In this document: one piece after another, positions 56,850-64,000 of the stretch
Layout: each line of letters opens with the position of its first letter
How positions within the stretch are numbered: position 1 is the stretch's first letter
From: a phage
DNA: 64,000 bases
Sequence record: PV467748.1
Direction: 5' to 3' (one strand)
The notes under the pieces: model-generated
The model's database searches: none
What the model saw: the letters and a program-made list of their open reading frames with translations, nothing else
Told to the model about the DNA's origin: nothing
Translations under genes and position numbers: made by a program

Positions 56850-57778
56850 TGTATACTTTACAAGAATTTCAGAACCAGGCAATTAATATTGACCTACAGA
56901 GGAATAACCTGTTTAGTGTAGTATTTGCTACAGTTCCTTCTTCTAAATCCCAAGCGCTCCTCGACCAGTTCGGTGGAGCTTTATTTAACAATATCCCATT
57001 GAATAGCGATTTGTTTGGTATTACACAAGGAGAGTTGACCCAAGGTGTTACGACATTAGTGACAGCGGGCACTCAGAAGTTGATTCGTAAGTCAGGCATA
57101 AGTAAATATCTGATTGGAGCTATGTCATCCAGGGTTGTGCAGAGCTTACTAGGAGAGTTTGAAGTAGGTACATATCTGATGGATTTTTTCAATATGGCCT
57201 ATCCTACGGCAGGTCTTTTAGTCCACGCCGTTAAAATCCCAGATAATACTTTGAGCTATGAAATGGATTTGAACCACAACTCGCCTAACATCAAAATTAC
57301 CGGAAGAGAATATTCTCCATTGGTATTAAGCTTCCGTATGGATTCTGAAGCTGCTAACTACCGTGCTTTTAATGATTGGGTCAATAGTGTTCAAGACCCT
57401 ATTACACAATTAAGAGCATTGCCTGAGGATGTTGAAGCCGACATTCAAGTCAACCTTCATTCTCGTAATGGATTGCCACATACGGTAGTAATGCTTAATG
57501 GTTGTGTTCCAATGAGCGTATCTTCCCCGGAATTATCTTACGACGGTGATAACCAAATTGCTTCGTTTGATGTTACATTTGCTTATAGAAGTGTACAGAC
57601 AGGCGCAGTCGGTAAACAGGCTGCTTACGAATGGCTGGAAGATAAGATTATTAAAGGCGTCGCTGGGCTAAGTGAGAATAATTCACTGAGTTCTTCAGTA
57701 GCTAAATTAAGTCGACTTTCAGGAGCGGCTAGTGGATTAACAGGATTGGTTAATAGTAGAATATCGAGGTTGCTATAG
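56849..57778 (+). CDS. 54: baseplate tail-tube initiator gp54
   Basis: 309 aa (T4 320); synteny. Confidence 0.8.
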   Translation: MYTLQEFQNQAINIDLQRNNLFSVVFATVPSSKSQALLDQFGGALFNNIPLNSDLFGITQGELTQGVTTLVTAGTQKLIRKSGISKYLIGAMSSRVVQSLLGEFEVGTYLMDFFNMAYPTAGLLVHAVKIPDNTLSYEMDLNHNSPNIKITGREYSPLVLSFRMDSEAANYRAFNDWVNSVQDPITQLRALPEDVEADIQVNLHSRNGLPHTVVMLNGCVPMSVSSPELSYDGDNQIASFDVTFAYRSVQTGAVGKQAAYEWLEDKIIKGVAGLSENNSLSSSVAKLSRLSGAASGLTGLVNSRISRLL

Positions 57779-57785
57779 CAAAAAA

Positions 57786-57810
57786 GGAGAGCGTACGCTC
57801 TCCTTTAGGG
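57786..57810. terminator. terminator palindrome GGAGAGCGTACGCTCTCC (A-run upstream, TTT downstream)
   Basis: Perfect 18-nt palindrome between convergent gene 54 and the 57813..58103 gene; stronger for the minus strand. Confidence 0.65.
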
Positions 57811-57812
57811 GG

Positions 57813-58103
57813 TTATTTACGGAACGAAATGAAACCTGCTGCAGTCATTAGTGGTTGCTTTTTATCAAACACCGTAACTGAAATAGGAGCTTCAGATTCG
57901 AGTTGTCCTGTCACTACACCGTTAAAAATGTTTTCGGTTTGTTCTGGATGAGAAAAATTCTCAACAGGCCGGATATCAAACTGTTTGTCTTCACCGAAAA
58001 CTCGACGTAATTCATTACCCACTGCACTGTCAAACTCTTCAGAAGCAGGGATAACGTTTTCAACCACCAGTTCTTGACCATTAAAACGGAATGCAGATTT
58101 CAT
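57813..58103 (-). CDS. hypothetical protein downstream of alt
   Basis: ORF track; ATG start; own early-type promoter upstream. Confidence 0.55.
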   Translation of the reverse strand: MKSAFRFNGQELVVENVIPASEEFDSAVGNELRRVFGEDKQFDIRPVENFSHPEQTENIFNGVVTGQLESEAPISVTVFDKKQPLMTAAGFISFRK

Positions 58104-58130
58104 AATGTTCTCCTCATGTTTGTGTAAGGT

Positions 58131-58160
58131 AATAGTACCACATCCTTGTGGTGTTGTAAA
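58131..58160 (-). promoter_or_regulatory. T4 early-type promoter (GTTTAC-N18-TACTAT)
   Basis: Minus strand GTTTACAACACCACAAGGATGTGGTACTAT between the altA stop and the 57813..58103 gene. Confidence 0.5.
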
Positions 58161-60284
58161 CTACATTTTGAATTTATTTGATAAAGAAGAGATATCCAAA
58201 GACGCTGCAAGGATTTCCATAGCTTCGTTGCTTTCAGAAACGGATTCATTAACCAAGAATTGACTAAATCCATCCATCAGGCGAACTTCACCAGTTTCCA
58301 TCAAATGGTCACCATCGTAAACAGATTCGCTGAGCTCTGAAGGAGGTGTTACGGTAGCTTCCATAAGGTATTTGTGAGATACTCTATCATTCATGGCAAA
58401 AGCCGCTACTTTATCAACCTTCAACAATAATCCGCGCGGAAGGATAATTTCTGCTTCTTCGGCATATTCTGTAAGGTCACCAGGAGCGATAACTTTAACT
58501 GCTTCAGCACCTCGAATAACCATACCAATTTCAGCAATTCTATCTGCAGGACCTTCAGGTGCAATTGGATTACCAAACTCGTCTTCTTCCCATTCTACCT
58601 CTTCGTCATCGACTTCACCCACATCAGATGAACTACCACTAGCCAATTTAAACAACTCATCAGCTGAGGACAAAGAACCTTCACCACCAACAAAAACGGC
58701 TTGGTTGTCGAGGGCCATATAATTTTTACCGAATTCACCAAAGATGTTAGGCTTTAATGAGGCTGACACAAAGTTCTTAAAGTAAAATGTTTTGTTATCG
58801 ATATTATGGCGCAGAATTTTGTATGGCAAATCCTGACCACGATACAAAATAGTACCCTTAGGAAGTTTAATACCCTTAGTAAATGCTGAGTCTAAATCCT
58901 TAATCAATTTAATAGCCGTTGTATTGTTTTCGGATTCAGGTTTACCTAAAAGGAATAAGTTCATAGGAGCATATTCAGCCGCGCAATATTCAATAATAGC
59001 ATTGCTTTCGTCTTTGGTTAGGTCCTTAGGTTTAATGAGCTCGCCTGAATAAGCATATGCATCACTAATAGAATCGTTAACCAGTTTATAAACTGCTTCC
59101 ATAGCGAAAGCAATTCGAGAGGCCTTTTCTGAAGGGGAACCCTTAAAACGGGTACTCAGGTTATTAACAATTTTCTTAATAATATCCAGACTATTGGTTG
59201 TATTGATTTGCGAAAGACCACTTAAAAGTCTATCGACTTCTGTATTAAAAAATGCCATATTATTAGAGTAAATTTCAAACCCTTGTTTATCTCTATTAGC
59301 ATAATTTAGTTTAAATTTACTATCAGTCATTAAAGCGTGTGTGAGAGCAATAGTGTATCTAAAGTTGGCAAGGTCCTCGCTCTTAGATTTAAACTGAGAA
59401 GCCTGGCGCATTTTAGTAATAGCACCTTTTTTAAAGTTCTGGCTAATCTGTTCAATACCTTCATTCTCAGGGCCTTCAGCCGTGTGAACAGGTACAGAAG
59501 CTTCAAACTCATTATAAACCTGCAATTCTTTAGGGGACAAAGTTTCAGGTTCGGCAGTAGAATACTGCGCCGCTGCTGCCATACGACGGGAAATCTTAGT
59601 ACGGGTAATGACAGCCTTATCGGTACGTTTCTCTTCAACTTGTGCAATAGATGCCGCTACTGCTTCAACCTTACTTACGGCCTGGCCGGTTTTCTTAGAA
59701 ACATACACTTCGCCAACTTTAGACTCAACTTTAGTATAAAGATCGGCATTAATTTCAGGCATACCCTTGATATCTTCAATATTAGCACCACGACGTACTA
59801 AAAGAACGTAGGTATGTTTTCCGCTGAATTGGAACATGTCGTCAACAACTTTAAACTTACCACCGGTACGAGCCATAGCCAAACGAGCTAATACGCGCTG
59901 AACGGTAGGGCCCTTACCTTTCATTTTCTTAGTAGGGAAACGGAACAGAACTGCGTCCATTTTAAGTTTGTTTATTTGTTCGTATATGGTATCGAAAATG
60001 GTGTTCAGTGTACCAAGTGGATCGGTACCCAACCCGCCCTTGAGTTCTGCCGGAGCGCCTTTAGCTGACAAACTCATCAAAATAACATGAACATATTTGT
60101 CGCCCGGCTTAACCATTTTAATAGCGTCTCCTTGAGACGCATAAGATACCATACGAGCAACCAGATTATCATTACCTGGTGCTTGGATAGAGAAAATCTG
60201 TGGAATACCGGAACCCGGTTTAAGATTTGTTACTGGATAGTTTTTAGCGGAATCACTATCAAAAACCTCATTTAAATTTTCCAT
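58161..60284 (-). CDS. alt: Alt-like mono-ADP-ribosyltransferase, paralog A (packaged and injected in T4)
   Basis: 707 aa (T4 Alt 682); conserved N-terminal about 230 aa; C-terminal R-S-E motifs (YRGQ, SASL, EAE). Confidence 0.85.
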   Translation of the reverse strand: MENLNEVFDSDSAKNYPVTNLKPGSGIPQIFSIQAPGNDNLVARMVSYASQGDAIKMVKPGDKYVHVILMSLSAKGAPAELKGGLGTDPLGTLNTIFDTIYEQINKLKMDAVLFRFPTKKMKGKGPTVQRVLARLAMARTGGKFKVVDDMFQFSGKHTYVLLVRRGANIEDIKGMPEINADLYTKVESKVGEVYVSKKTGQAVSKVEAVAASIAQVEEKRTDKAVITRTKISRRMAAAAQYSTAEPETLSPKELQVYNEFEASVPVHTAEGPENEGIEQISQNFKKGAITKMRQASQFKSKSEDLANFRYTIALTHALMTDSKFKLNYANRDKQGFEIYSNNMAFFNTEVDRLLSGLSQINTTNSLDIIKKIVNNLSTRFKGSPSEKASRIAFAMEAVYKLVNDSISDAYAYSGELIKPKDLTKDESNAIIEYCAAEYAPMNLFLLGKPESENNTTAIKLIKDLDSAFTKGIKLPKGTILYRGQDLPYKILRHNIDNKTFYFKNFVSASLKPNIFGEFGKNYMALDNQAVFVGGEGSLSSADELFKLASGSSSDVGEVDDEEVEWEEDEFGNPIAPEGPADRIAEIGMVIRGAEAVKVIAPGDLTEYAEEAEIILPRGLLLKVDKVAAFAMNDRVSHKYLMEATVTPPSELSESVYDGDHLMETGEVRLMDGFSQFLVNESVSESNEAMEILAASLDISSLSNKFKM

Positions 60285-60287
60285 TAT

Positions 60288-62372
60288 TTACCCTTGGATG
60301 AATTTTTCTGGGATGTCATAGAGGTCTATGCATGAAGCCAAAAGAGGCAGTACATCAAACCGGGTAGATTTAACAAATGAATCAAAAGATACAGGGCTTT
60401 CGGAAGTATCGAAGTCATCTTGGTATACAACCAATTCACCAGTTTCCATTAGTACGTCACCATCATACACTACAGATTCTTGAAGCTCATCTGTTGTCAT
60501 AACTTCAGCTTGAATGAGTTTTGTATTATTAGATGTTGTTCCATCATTATTAGAAGCATCTGTTATTTTATTAACTTTGACCATTAATCCACGTGGTAGA
60601 ATAACTTCAGCTTCAGTTGCTATTCCGAGATTTCCTGGATATACAACATTAACTTTATGAGCACCGTCAATTGCCCATCCTATTTGAGCTTTAACGTAAT
60701 CAGGATTTTCCTTATACGCCCTTATTTCATTAGGGTTAATAGTTATTCCTTCTTCATTTTTATCGACTGTCAATTCATTGCGAACTTCCGGTTCTAAAAG
60801 ACCGATACCAGCGTGTGTAACACCAAATCGTCCAAAAATGATAGGGGTTAAAGAAGTAGATACAAAATTTCTGAAATAGAACACTTTATTTTTAACTAGT
60901 GCTTCGTATATAGGAGCAGTCATACTCTGGGCACGATAAACTGTGATGCCTTCTGGTATACGGTCGCCGTTTTCAAAAGCTGAATCTAAATTATTTATCG
61001 CAGATTCAATTTCTTTTTCACTCATTACCTCATATCGTTCTGGATTGTAGCGACCTAAAAGAAGATTATTGATGTCAGTATATCCTGAACCACAATATTC
61101 TCTGATACCACGCTTTTGTGATGGAGTATATTTAGAACCCTCACGAGCAATAGTAATATCAACCATAATACCGCCACCTACACCAGCAAAACTATAAACA
61201 CATTTTTTAATGAACTTGGTCTTAGTGGCTTTCCACTTGGACTCGGTTAATTCATTCCAGACGTCGTCAGGTTGACCTTTACGAGTTTTGTTATGCTTGG
61301 CCAACCATTTGGCTTTGTATTCTTCGAAAATGGTATTAATAGCAGAGGCATATTTTTCTAGAGCTTTAACAGATGTCAAAGGTTCGTTTTTGATGGCCGC
61401 AAGAATTTTATCTTTAATTTTCTCTTGGATTTCACCTATACCGTGAAGAGGAAACATTTTGTAATCGTAATGCAATTCTTCAGCAGTGCCTTCAGCTATT
61501 ATATTAGCAACCTTATTTTTAGCCGCAGGAGAATTGTTATTAGTAACCATTTCCTGGGCCTCAGGGATTAATGGAGCTGTTGCTGGTTTATTAAAATCCA
61601 CTGCAGTAGCTTCATATTTCTTAAACAGTTCACTTTCATTACGATAAGATTCTAACGATTGACTTGCTGCAATAGCACGACGCGAAATCTTAGTCTTGGT
61701 TATAACCATTTTATCAGTGCGACGTTCTTCAACTTTAGCAATACTGCCGGCAATAGCAGTTTCTTTAGTAACCTGCACACCTTCTTTTTTAGAAATATAA
61801 ACTTCACCGACATCAGAATCTACCTTAGTGTATAATTCGGAATTAATTCCAGGCATACCTTTGATATCTTCGATATCAGCTTGTTTACGAACTACTAGAA
61901 TATAAGTATGTTTACCAGTAAATTGGTACATAGCCGGAACTACTTTGAAGCGTCCACCTGTTTTTTGAGTTGCCAAACGTTGGATAATCCGTTGGACGAT
62001 AGGTCCTTGCCCTTTCATTTTCTTGGTTGGAAAACGGAACATCACAGCATCCATACGAAGCTTTTTAACTTGTTCGAATACTACGTCGAAAATGGTATTA
62101 ATAGCATCAATAGGAGTAGGGCCTAAGCCGCCTTTAAGTTCGGCTGGAGAACCTTTAGCTGAAAGGCTCATAAGGATAATGTGGGCGTATTTATCACCTA
62201 ATTTAACCTGTTTAATAGCATCGCCTTCAGAGGCATAAGATACCATACGAGCAACCAATTGGGATTCAGCATCGCCAATCTTCCAAATCTGGGGTACTTT
62301 AAGTTTTGGGTTTAAGTTTACAGTAGGCAGGGTGCCTTCGGACTCAAACACCTCATTCAATTGTTCGGTCAT
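60288..62372 (-). CDS. Alt-like mono-ADP-ribosyltransferase, paralog B
   Basis: 694 aa; N-terminal region highly similar to paralog A, divergent middle; R-S-E motifs (YRAQ, STSL, EAE). Confidence 0.85.
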   Translation of the reverse strand: MTEQLNEVFESEGTLPTVNLNPKLKVPQIWKIGDAESQLVARMVSYASEGDAIKQVKLGDKYAHIILMSLSAKGSPAELKGGLGPTPIDAINTIFDVVFEQVKKLRMDAVMFRFPTKKMKGQGPIVQRIIQRLATQKTGGRFKVVPAMYQFTGKHTYILVVRKQADIEDIKGMPGINSELYTKVDSDVGEVYISKKEGVQVTKETAIAGSIAKVEERRTDKMVITKTKISRRAIAASQSLESYRNESELFKKYEATAVDFNKPATAPLIPEAQEMVTNNNSPAAKNKVANIIAEGTAEELHYDYKMFPLHGIGEIQEKIKDKILAAIKNEPLTSVKALEKYASAINTIFEEYKAKWLAKHNKTRKGQPDDVWNELTESKWKATKTKFIKKCVYSFAGVGGGIMVDITIAREGSKYTPSQKRGIREYCGSGYTDINNLLLGRYNPERYEVMSEKEIESAINNLDSAFENGDRIPEGITVYRAQSMTAPIYEALVKNKVFYFRNFVSTSLTPIIFGRFGVTHAGIGLLEPEVRNELTVDKNEEGITINPNEIRAYKENPDYVKAQIGWAIDGAHKVNVVYPGNLGIATEAEVILPRGLMVKVNKITDASNNDGTTSNNTKLIQAEVMTTDELQESVVYDGDVLMETGELVVYQDDFDTSESPVSFDSFVKSTRFDVLPLLASCIDLYDIPEKFIQG

Positions 62373-62380
62373 AATAATTC

Positions 62381-64000
62381 CTATTTAAATAAATTTGATA
62401 ATTTTTCCATAGAATCTTCGTAAAGGATTTTATCATAACTTTCAAATGAAAGTACTGTGCTATACGAATTTTCTTCTGTGATTTGTTCAGAACCAATAAC
62501 TTCGCACTCCACCAATACGTACTTACCTATAGAACCCATAAGACCTTTAGAAGCACCATACACTTTATTAATTTTAAGCATTACGCCTCTAGGAAGAATA
62601 ACCTCAGTTTCTGTAGACCAATTTGCCAAATTACCTGGTACGATAACTTTAATTTTGTCCGCGCCTTTAATAATTAATCCAAGCTTAATTGTCTCTCTAG
62701 CACTTCCGGTTGCACTTTTAATTGTGTCTTCTAGATTATTATCTATATCGCTAGAAAGAGCTTCGGGATCTAAATTTGATTGAGCGTGTCCCATTTCGCC
62801 AAAAATATTAGGAGCTAATGAGGTAGATGCGAAAATAGGAAGATACATTACTTTATGTTTTATTGAATTCAAAGCCATTTCGGTGGGCATTATTTGAGAT
62901 CGATACACTATAGTTCCTTTAGGGAGCTTTGTACCGTTTTCAAAAGCAGAATCCATATCACCAATCATTTTTATCATTTCATCAGTAGTATCTGTTTTAC
63001 CTAATAAAAAGTTGTTAATGTGATTATATCCACCGCGAGTGTACTTTTTGATAGCCTCTTCTTGAGGTTTAGTTAAATTGGGATTGTCATCTATTTTAAA
63101 CAAAGGTTGTATAGATTTGGTATAGACTGCTACTAATGATTTTATTACTTCTTTTATTTTAGATTCTCTAGCCCATGTACCTTTAACTGAACCATCTAAA
63201 AGAGATGCGGCAACTAATCTAAGGACGTCCACATGTGTTTTACCTGATTTTAAAGCATTTATAACACCATTAGATTTATCTAAAGAATCTGATGATTCTA
63301 AAGCAAACTTTATATCTTTAATTAATTTAAGCCTATGCTCATCTATTTCAAACGACGGATTAACACCATTAAAAATATAATCTAAATATTCTGCCATTTC
63401 TTTAGAAGTATCTTTTAATACTTTAATACCGGCTGACGCTATTTGGCTTTCTTTAGAACCTTCAGAAGAATGCACTGAACTAGTAATAGATAAATCGGAG
63501 TAAACTTTTTTATGTTCTTCTGAAAATTTATTCAATCCTGACGGTTCTGATGTTGAGTATAGTGCATTTATTGCGGCTCGTTTAGAAACCTTTGTTTTGG
63601 TTATAACCATTTTATCTGAACGAGATTTTTCTATTTCATCTATAGATTTAGCTATGGCTTCTAGTTTAGTAACATCTTCACCTGTTTTCTTTGAAACATA
63701 TACATCACCAACTTCAGATTCAACTTTAGTATATAACTCAGCATTAATATTTGGGATGCCTTTTATAGATTCTATATTTTTATTTTTACGGTAGATAAAA
63801 ACATATGAATGTTTACCACTGAATTGGTACAAGGCGTCAAGGACCTTGAATTGTCCACCCGCTCTAGAAGCTATCAATTTGGCTAGGACTCTCTGTACGG
63901 TTTTTTCCTGCCCTTTCATTTTCTTGGTTGGAAAACGGAACATCACAGCATCCATACGAAGAGCTTTAATTTGTTCATAGACTATATCAAATATGGAACG
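62381..64000 (-). CDS. Alt-like mono-ADP-ribosyltransferase, paralog C (N-terminus beyond window)
   Basis: Reading frame stays open to the window edge (RSIFDIVYEQIKALRMDAVMFRFPTKK... aligns with about residue 95 of paralogs A and B); R-S-E motifs (YRSQ, STSL, ETE). Confidence 0.8.
   Translation of the reverse strand, partial: RSIFDIVYEQIKALRMDAVMFRFPTKKMKGQEKTVQRVLAKLIASRAGGQFKVLDALYQFSGKHSYVFIYRKNKNIESIKGIPNINAELYTKVESEVGDVYVSKKTGEDVTKLEAIAKSIDEIEKSRSDKMVITKTKVSKRAAINALYSTSEPSGLNKFSEEHKKVYSDLSITSSVHSSEGSKESQIASAGIKVLKDTSKEMAEYLDYIFNGVNPSFEIDEHRLKLIKDIKFALESSDSLDKSNGVINALKSGKTHVDVLRLVAASLLDGSVKGTWARESKIKEVIKSLVAVYTKSIQPLFKIDDNPNLTKPQEEAIKKYTRGGYNHINNFLLGKTDTTDEMIKMIGDMDSAFENGTKLPKGTIVYRSQIMPTEMALNSIKHKVMYLPIFASTSLAPNIFGEMGHAQSNLDPEALSSDIDNNLEDTIKSATGSARETIKLGLIIKGADKIKVIVPGNLANWSTETEVILPRGVMLKINKVYGASKGLMGSIGKYVLVECEVIGSEQITEENSYSTVLSFESYDKILYEDSMEKLSNLFK

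Follow-up and report, generated by a model that had tools for sequence, protein, structure and literature searches.

Why should two strongly diverged tandem paralogs share one stretch of perfectly identical sequence? This question is raised by the end of a 64,000-nucleotide (nt) stretch of phage DNA (record PV467748.1; "the window" below means this whole stretch), where three tandem minus-strand genes for Alt-like ADP-ribosyltransferases (ARTs) are transcribed in the order altC, altB, altA. In a codon alignment that covered every alt gene of the window and of 14 relatives, altB and altC were ~51% identical at the nucleotide level over the whole alignment, and within it one block is the same in both genes to the last letter. 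The best-supported reading, and in our judgment a probable one, is a short non-allelic gene conversion by which 16 to 53 nt of an altB of the type carried by phage JS10 would have been copied over altC. The source of the window is, as judged from sequence identity, a Dhakavirus of the JS98/WG01 group, the nearest genomes being the Dhakaviruses JS98, JS10, WG01 and QL01 (~96% identity in the structural genes and 92% in the alt region).

An exact repeat between diverged paralogs

The maximal exact direct repeat between altB and altC measures 53 nt with zero mismatches, and its two copies are spaced 1901 nt apart (Table 1). An earlier note on this DNA, made by eye, had reported an identical block of 51 nt in the two genes. 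Such a string was found exactly twice in the window (62010-62060 and 63911-63961; 0 matches in 100 shuffles); the second of these positions agrees with the note, while the first had been placed ~19-21 nt too high (62029-62079). Exact alignment extended the block to 53 nt, none mismatched, instead of shortening it to less than 20 nt or exposing several mismatches, as the note had allowed it might. The flanks were likewise described correctly as diverged: in a 103-nt repeat family around the block (D3), identity amounts to 83% with the block counted and to ~65% outside it.

The block is in frame in both genes (from codon 105 in altB), the copies being direct repeats in one codon phase, and it corresponds to AltB residues 105-122 of 694 and to the equivalent position of AltC. 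The shared peptide FRFPTKKMKGQ is as the earlier note gave it, but it lies within the N-terminal domain and not at the N-terminus; the AltC open reading frame seems to begin at the block because the window stops at 64000.

Among identical runs between altB and altC the block is followed by one of 20 nt, and permutation of codon columns gave a maximum of 30 nt in 20000 trials. Across 128 Alt homologues, no 18-residue window elsewhere in the protein is conserved as strongly as the block, whose 18 residues do not vary in any altB or altC allele. Since the peptide is the most conserved of the family, a fair null expectation has to be conditioned on identical amino acids. In such a test, altB and altC used the same codon at 14 of the 15 degenerate codons in the block, compared with a proportion of 0.53 outside it (P ~1e-3). 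Third-position identity between altB and altC of the window was 0.94-1.0 in the block vs. 0.3-0.6 elsewhere, while in the same block it reached 0.44-0.56, equal to background, for altB and altC of phage PSD2002 as well as for the altA/altB and altA/altC pairs.

Probable conversion of altC and alternative explanations

The altC gene of the window was compared with ten other altC alleles (WG01, ABTNLS3, LQ5, PSD2002, PSD9, E33 and four Logan contigs). All ten carry Val GTT together with Pro CCT in the block, whereas the window altC has GTG and CCA, the codons seen in JS10-type altB (diagnostic sites in Table 1). The ten alleles fall into two block haplotypes, 3 or 6 sites away from the window altC. 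In altB, two haplotypes five sites apart (JS10-type and WG01-type) were found along with intermediates; the altB block of the window is JS10-type, the same as in JS10, dhaeg, dhabil and EcWhh-1, and at least nine database records contain this haplotype. Alleles differ freely at the synonymous sites of the block, and in phage SP18 the paralogs use a wide variety of codons for the same motif. These patterns fit a converted tract of at least 16 nt (63929-63944), or 22 nt with respect to the nearest altC haplotype, and of at most 53 nt, as differences between altB and altC abut both ends of the block. Gene conversion or recombination within the array, as the earlier note had proposed, is thereby supported both by the codon identity within the block and by the altB-specific states absent from the ten altC alleles. 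No further altC alleles and no exact copy of the block were found in IMG/VR or in JGI metagenomes, and a large protein search for altC alleles returned only the WG01/PSD2002 cluster and a 62%-identical gene of SP18.

Several points weigh against a conversion of this kind. The test given identical amino acids yields no smaller P value than the one reported above, for a segment picked post hoc. The window altC is only three sites away from the nearest altC block haplotype, which leaves few informative positions, and the extent of the proposed tract rests on these for that reason. The event is undated by any sister genome, and allele frequencies are the only guide to its direction, which they suggest to be from altB to altC. 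A consensus or polishing error may have affected the altC block and, finally, a recombinant junction between altB and altC was found in no database genome.

It may be asked whether any exchange is needed at all. Purifying selection on an invariant peptide, with the shared codons owed to chance and to a common codon preference, would be in keeping with the 18 residues that do not vary in altB and altC and form the top conservation window of the family, with the 78-83% nucleotide identity that unconverted pairs already reach in the block, and with the three substitutions that separate the window altC block from that of PSD2002-type altC. This explanation appears improbable in view of the excess of identical degenerate codons over background, which neither A/B and A/C nor the PSD2002 B/C pair displays in the same block; moreover, all three changes hit altB states exactly and no other change occurs in the 53 nt, though the altC allele as a whole is 15% diverged from its nearest relatives. 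A functional nucleotide element whose sequence must be preserved in both genes, for instance a structured RNA, a site of internal initiation or regulation, or a DNA site bound by a protein, would also account for 53 perfectly identical nt, and the 14-nt core AAGAAAATGAAAGG is indeed invariant in all Dhakavirus alt paralogs examined. This core is, however, largely set by the peptide KKMKG, because Met is encoded by a single codon and each Lys by either of two, and orthologous alleles differ at synonymous sites, as do paralogs within other phages. With a permissive threshold, an Rfam search of 57000-64000 returned no match, and a scan for sigma-70 promoters and terminators found nothing at the block. 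The varied codons of SP18, together with the lack of any RNA family, promoter or terminator signal, therefore make a function at the nucleotide level extremely improbable.

The identity could also have been introduced during assembly or polishing, if altB reads had called the altC consensus where the copies differ at about three sites. Three miscalled positions would suffice, and neither the reads nor the exact genome of this phage is in any collection searched. Such an artefact is nevertheless very unlikely: the flanks are ~65% identical, so that reads longer than ~80 nt map unambiguously, and comparable B-like patches as well as a junction between two paralogs (described below) occur in independently sequenced relatives, which argues that the process is real in the Dhakavirus group. 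As to the donor, the altB of a different, co-infecting Dhakavirus might have been used in place of the resident gene, in an inter-genomic non-allelic exchange. The alleles of the group are heavily mosaic and the block haplotype is as widespread as stated above; an exchange of this kind belongs to the same mechanistic class as conversion by the resident altB and is indistinguishable from it by sequence. The resident altB is the simplest donor, because it has the identical haplotype only 1.9 kb away, and a foreign donor is regarded as rather unlikely.

A plausible course of events for the conversion of altC by altB starts from protein constraint. The block encodes the most conserved peptide of the family and therefore offers the paralogs their best stretch of nucleotide homology, ~80-90% identical even without conversion; strand invasion from one paralog into another could start or end there. 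Conversion would have landed at the block for this reason, the paralogs being otherwise saturated with differences. The machinery is likely the phage's own recombination-dependent replication and repair, with strand invasion of the UvsX type; an invading end might pick up a short tract of the wrong paralog before going back to its own template or, alternatively, a short heteroduplex patch might be repaired toward the donor sequence. One or the other of these pathways is what we infer for altB and altC. In T4-type recombination, small homology patches (<50 bp) suffice, according to Singer et al. 1982 as cited in PMC2839356. The outcome at such an island would be a patch of altB placed into altC without crossover, as in the window, or a crossover, as in phage WG01.

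Other exchanges at the island and changes in copy number

Relatives of the window phage carry two or three alt genes, in the combinations B-A, C-B-A and B-X-A, where X is a different third gene placed between altB and altA in QL01-type phages. WG01-type altC shares the codons GCC, ACT and GGT with WG01-type altB, has the altB Lys codon AAG directly 5' of the block (Ala GCC or GCT in other altC alleles), and contains runs of 29 and 23 nt identical to its own altB. The combinations GCT/ACC/GGG and GCC/ACT/GGT are each present in both the altB and the altC lineages. A second B-like patch, independent of the first, is present in WG01-type altC.

In WG01 itself, the first 371 nt of altA are identical to X of QL01, as part of a mismatch-free stretch of 695 nt that includes 324 nt upstream (WG01 locus L001, 6115-6809, vs. 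QL01 locus L003, 8164-8858; homologous to 59914-60284 of the window), and from the next base on the gene is ~98-99% identical to QL01 altA. It is a clean chimera of X and altA. The switch falls within 17 nt (TTACCTTTCATTTTCTT, codons for KKMKGK) inside the block, an interval that includes the core AAGAAAATGAAAGG, so that on at least one occasion the island has acted as a paralog junction. The chimera matches what would remain of a QL01-like B-X-A array after deletion of 2049 bp between its X and A blocks; equally, misaligned pairing of a three-gene with a two-gene genome, followed by crossover, could have produced it. Among 41 related records, the X::A junction was found in WG01 alone.

The X gene of phage C6 has AAA GCT CTT CGT (KALR) at alignment columns 104-108 in place of the A/X-type AAC AAA CTT AAA. 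These codons, located directly 5' of the block (homologous to ~63959-63973 of the window), match B/C-type genes, and a further B/C-like patch between paralogs at the 5' edge of the block is probable.

Including this case, at least three to four independent exchanges begin or end in or beside the same ~55 nt (B-to-C in the window, WG01-type altC, X::A in WG01, and X in C6). The block might accordingly be a preferred, perhaps actively targeted junction, for instance with a hotspot for breaks or for a nuclease at the core that encodes KKMKG, which would let Dhakaviruses shuffle variable C-terminal ART effector modules behind a constant N-terminal head-packaging module. If this were true, the alt array would expand and contract as an effector-diversification system. 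We consider it unlikely; the repeated exchanges fit simple homology-limited recombination just as well.

With respect to copy number, the comparison of related phages that the earlier note had called for gave the variation between two and three genes described above. The note had also suggested that the repeat could mediate such changes. This is plausible, with the X/A junction of WG01 as a precedent, but for altB and altC the phage collection contained neither the predicted deletion junction nor the predicted duplication junction, the best matches being plain altB or altC at 93% or less. Two-copy relatives (JS10, IME281, NC-G and others) were considered as C::B hybrids and ruled out, their second gene having an altB-type N-terminus. 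A perfect direct repeat of 53 bp is a better recombination substrate than the 17 nt of WG01, and it would be expected to raise the rate of an in-frame 1901-bp deletion yielding an AltC(1-122)::AltB(123-694) chimera.

Other mosaic features were noted in these genes. For the 5' 370 nt of altA (alignment columns 0-124; 59914-60284 of the window), two haplotypes of ~80% identity exist that are combined differently from phage to phage, switching near codon 70 and at the block; past the block, all altA alleles are close to identical. Exact runs of 25 nt between altA and altB (LVARMVSYA; 60139-60163 and 62233-62257) and of 20 nt between altB and altC (DKMVITK; 61696-61715 and 63597-63616) coincide with locally raised third-position identity, a sign that the N-terminal domain may contain further small patches of exchange. 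Within altB, a 21-nt exact direct repeat (TGCTATTAATACCATTTTCGA on the coding strand; 61324-61344 and 62086-62106) encodes AINTIF[E/D] at residues ~90 and 344. The two copies match in the window, WG01 and E33; in JS10, NC-G and CLB_P2 the second site is different, and another ectopic micro-conversion may be involved. JS98-type altB (JS98 and MN04) shares with JS10 altB the N-terminal domain (93-100% nucleotide identity) and the last ~60 codons, while the middle/ART region is 35-60% identical; this pattern is, on the alignment, that of a module replacement behind a constant N-terminal domain. Phage 04086 (locus L022, 2964-5527) has an altA region that exceeds that of relatives by ~440 nt, with a ~240-nt tandem duplication and an annotation break; being either a real internal duplication or an assembly problem in a sparsely annotated record, this region was set aside.

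The alt array and comparison with known systems

The array follows the convergent baseplate genes gp29-gp48-gp54 and alt.-3, in the T4-type order, and in WG01, JS10 and QL01 a ligase gene lies upstream of it. A GC-rich strong hairpin with T/A runs on both sides (57783-57806) lies between the convergent gp54 and alt.-3 and is likely a bidirectional terminator. Over altA and altB together, IME281 is 95% identical to the window. The nearest database altC has 85% nucleotide identity to that of the window, and nothing closer than ~85% was found in the phage, IMG/VR, metagenome and protein collections searched; altC orthologues in WG01 and PSD2002 are 631 amino acids (aa) long.

Table 1. Features of the alt region, given as positions in the 64,000-nt window
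Feature	Position	Strand	Description
alt.-3-like small open reading frame	57813..58103	-	downstream end of array, adjoins gp54
altA	58161..60284	-	707-aa Alt-like ADP-ribosyltransferase
altA homologous block, unconverted	59914..59966	-	12/53 mismatches; synonymous sites at background identity
altB	60288..62372	-	694-aa Alt-like ADP-ribosyltransferase; ART domain ~aa 379-627
Block copy 1, altB codons 105-122, LRMDAVMFRFPTKKMKGQ	62008..62060	-	probable donor haplotype
altC	62381..64000	-	539 codons present; 5' end beyond window end
Block copy 2, altC	63909..63961	-	probable recipient
14-nt core AAGAAAATGAAAGG (KKMKG)	altB 62011..62024, altA 59917-59930, altC 63912-63925	-	same in all three genes
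altC diagnostic site	63929		Pro CCA vs. CCT in all other altC
altC diagnostic site	63944		Val GTG vs. GTT in all other altC
altC diagnostic site	63950		Asp GAT vs. GAC in PSD2002-type altC
AltA catalytic motifs			LYRGQ, FVSASL, EEAEIILPRG; read from translation
AltB catalytic motifs			VYRAQ, FVSTSL, TEAEVILPRG; read from translation
AltC catalytic motifs			VYRSQ, FASTSL, TETEVILPRG; read from translation

At the protein level, the C-terminal ADP-ribosyltransferase domain PF03496 was recognized in AltA (score 2.6e-17), AltB (2.2e-36), the WG01 orthologue of AltC (7.6e-14) and X of QL01 (6.9e-21), and the R / S-x-S / E-x-E motifs of the R-S-E clade are readable in the translations of AltA, AltB and AltC. 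The N-terminal family PF26846 (Tevenvirinae_ADPRT) is precomputed in 120 of the 120 homologues listed, including a 90%-identical relative of AltC; for AltB aa 1-240, a local Pfam search detected no sequence family. In a search of PDB sequences the ART domain weakly matched iota-toxin/CDT and the N-terminal domain matched nothing. In a confident model of AltB residues 1-240 (predicted local distance difference test score, pLDDT, 88), the block runs through the end of a helix, a central strand (DAVMFRF), a turn (PTKKMKG) and the next helix; structural searches with this model gave a weak, sub-threshold resemblance to GNAT acetyltransferases, to be taken as a lead only. A role of the N-terminal domain in packaging is plausible.

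As an event type, short-tract gene conversion and unequal crossing-over in a tandem gene family are already known, and the present case is a new, well-documented example in the alt array of Dhakavirus. A lytic T4-type phage here bears an unusually clear footprint of micro gene conversion, and the case points to an effector array that evolves by non-allelic exchange at one conserved motif. In practical terms, gene trees of alt would be misleading near the block motif, alt copy number and gene combination are unsafe as stable taxonomic characters, and stocks carrying the 53-bp perfect direct repeat may yield 1.9-kb deletion variants with a chimeric Alt protein. Its usefulness lies in annotation and in the stability of phage stocks; the general understanding of recombination is unchanged, and a specialist would not be surprised.

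The closest functional reference is T4 Alt (gpAlt), an NAD+:arginine ADP-ribosyltransferase. The T4 protein is packaged in the head, injected, and ADP-ribosylates the alpha subunit of host RNA polymerase, activities known for T4 Alt only (PMC9503650). Like the array, the T4 gene sits between gene 30 (DNA ligase)/alt.1 and alt.-3/gp54, and its product has a C-terminal PF03496 ART domain with R / S-T-S / E-x-E motifs; N-terminal PF26846 is found in close homologues. On the other hand, T4 has a single gene and the window three diverged tandem paralogs, known here from sequence alone, and the motif MDAVMFRFPTKKMKGQ of the window is replaced by IDACMLRILKSKTAGQ in the T4-type sequences of the homologue set.

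With unequal crossing-over the array shares direct repeats in the same codon phase, a variation of two to three alt genes among relatives, and the WG01 gene that corresponds to a 2049-bp deletion product; it differs in that its own B/C pair is without an observed recombinant junction. The genes tufA and tufB are an example of concerted evolution by short-tract gene conversion. The same process acts between other dispersed or tandem paralogs, such as bacterial rRNA operons (PMC8022953). In those systems, as in the window, non-allelic exchange homogenizes a tract in separate copies and the recipients hold the synonymous states of the donor. Here, by contrast, the tract does not exceed 53 nt and one motif was patched between paralogs that are otherwise saturated, rather than whole genes being homogenized.

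Recombination at short conserved motifs is also said to swap domains in the tail-fibre adhesin genes of T-even phages, reportedly described by Tétart, Desplats and Krisch in 1998. Modular shuffling in T4-type phages mediated by PeSL cassettes is described in PMC2839356. The likeness to both lies in the use of short conserved islands of T4-type genomes as crossover points, and the X::A gene of WG01 similarly joins the 5' part of one paralog to the 3' part of another at the motif. The island of the alt genes is, in turn, neither a tail-fibre motif nor an intergenic promoter/stem-loop cassette, but a coding motif within the constant N-terminal domain of an injected effector.

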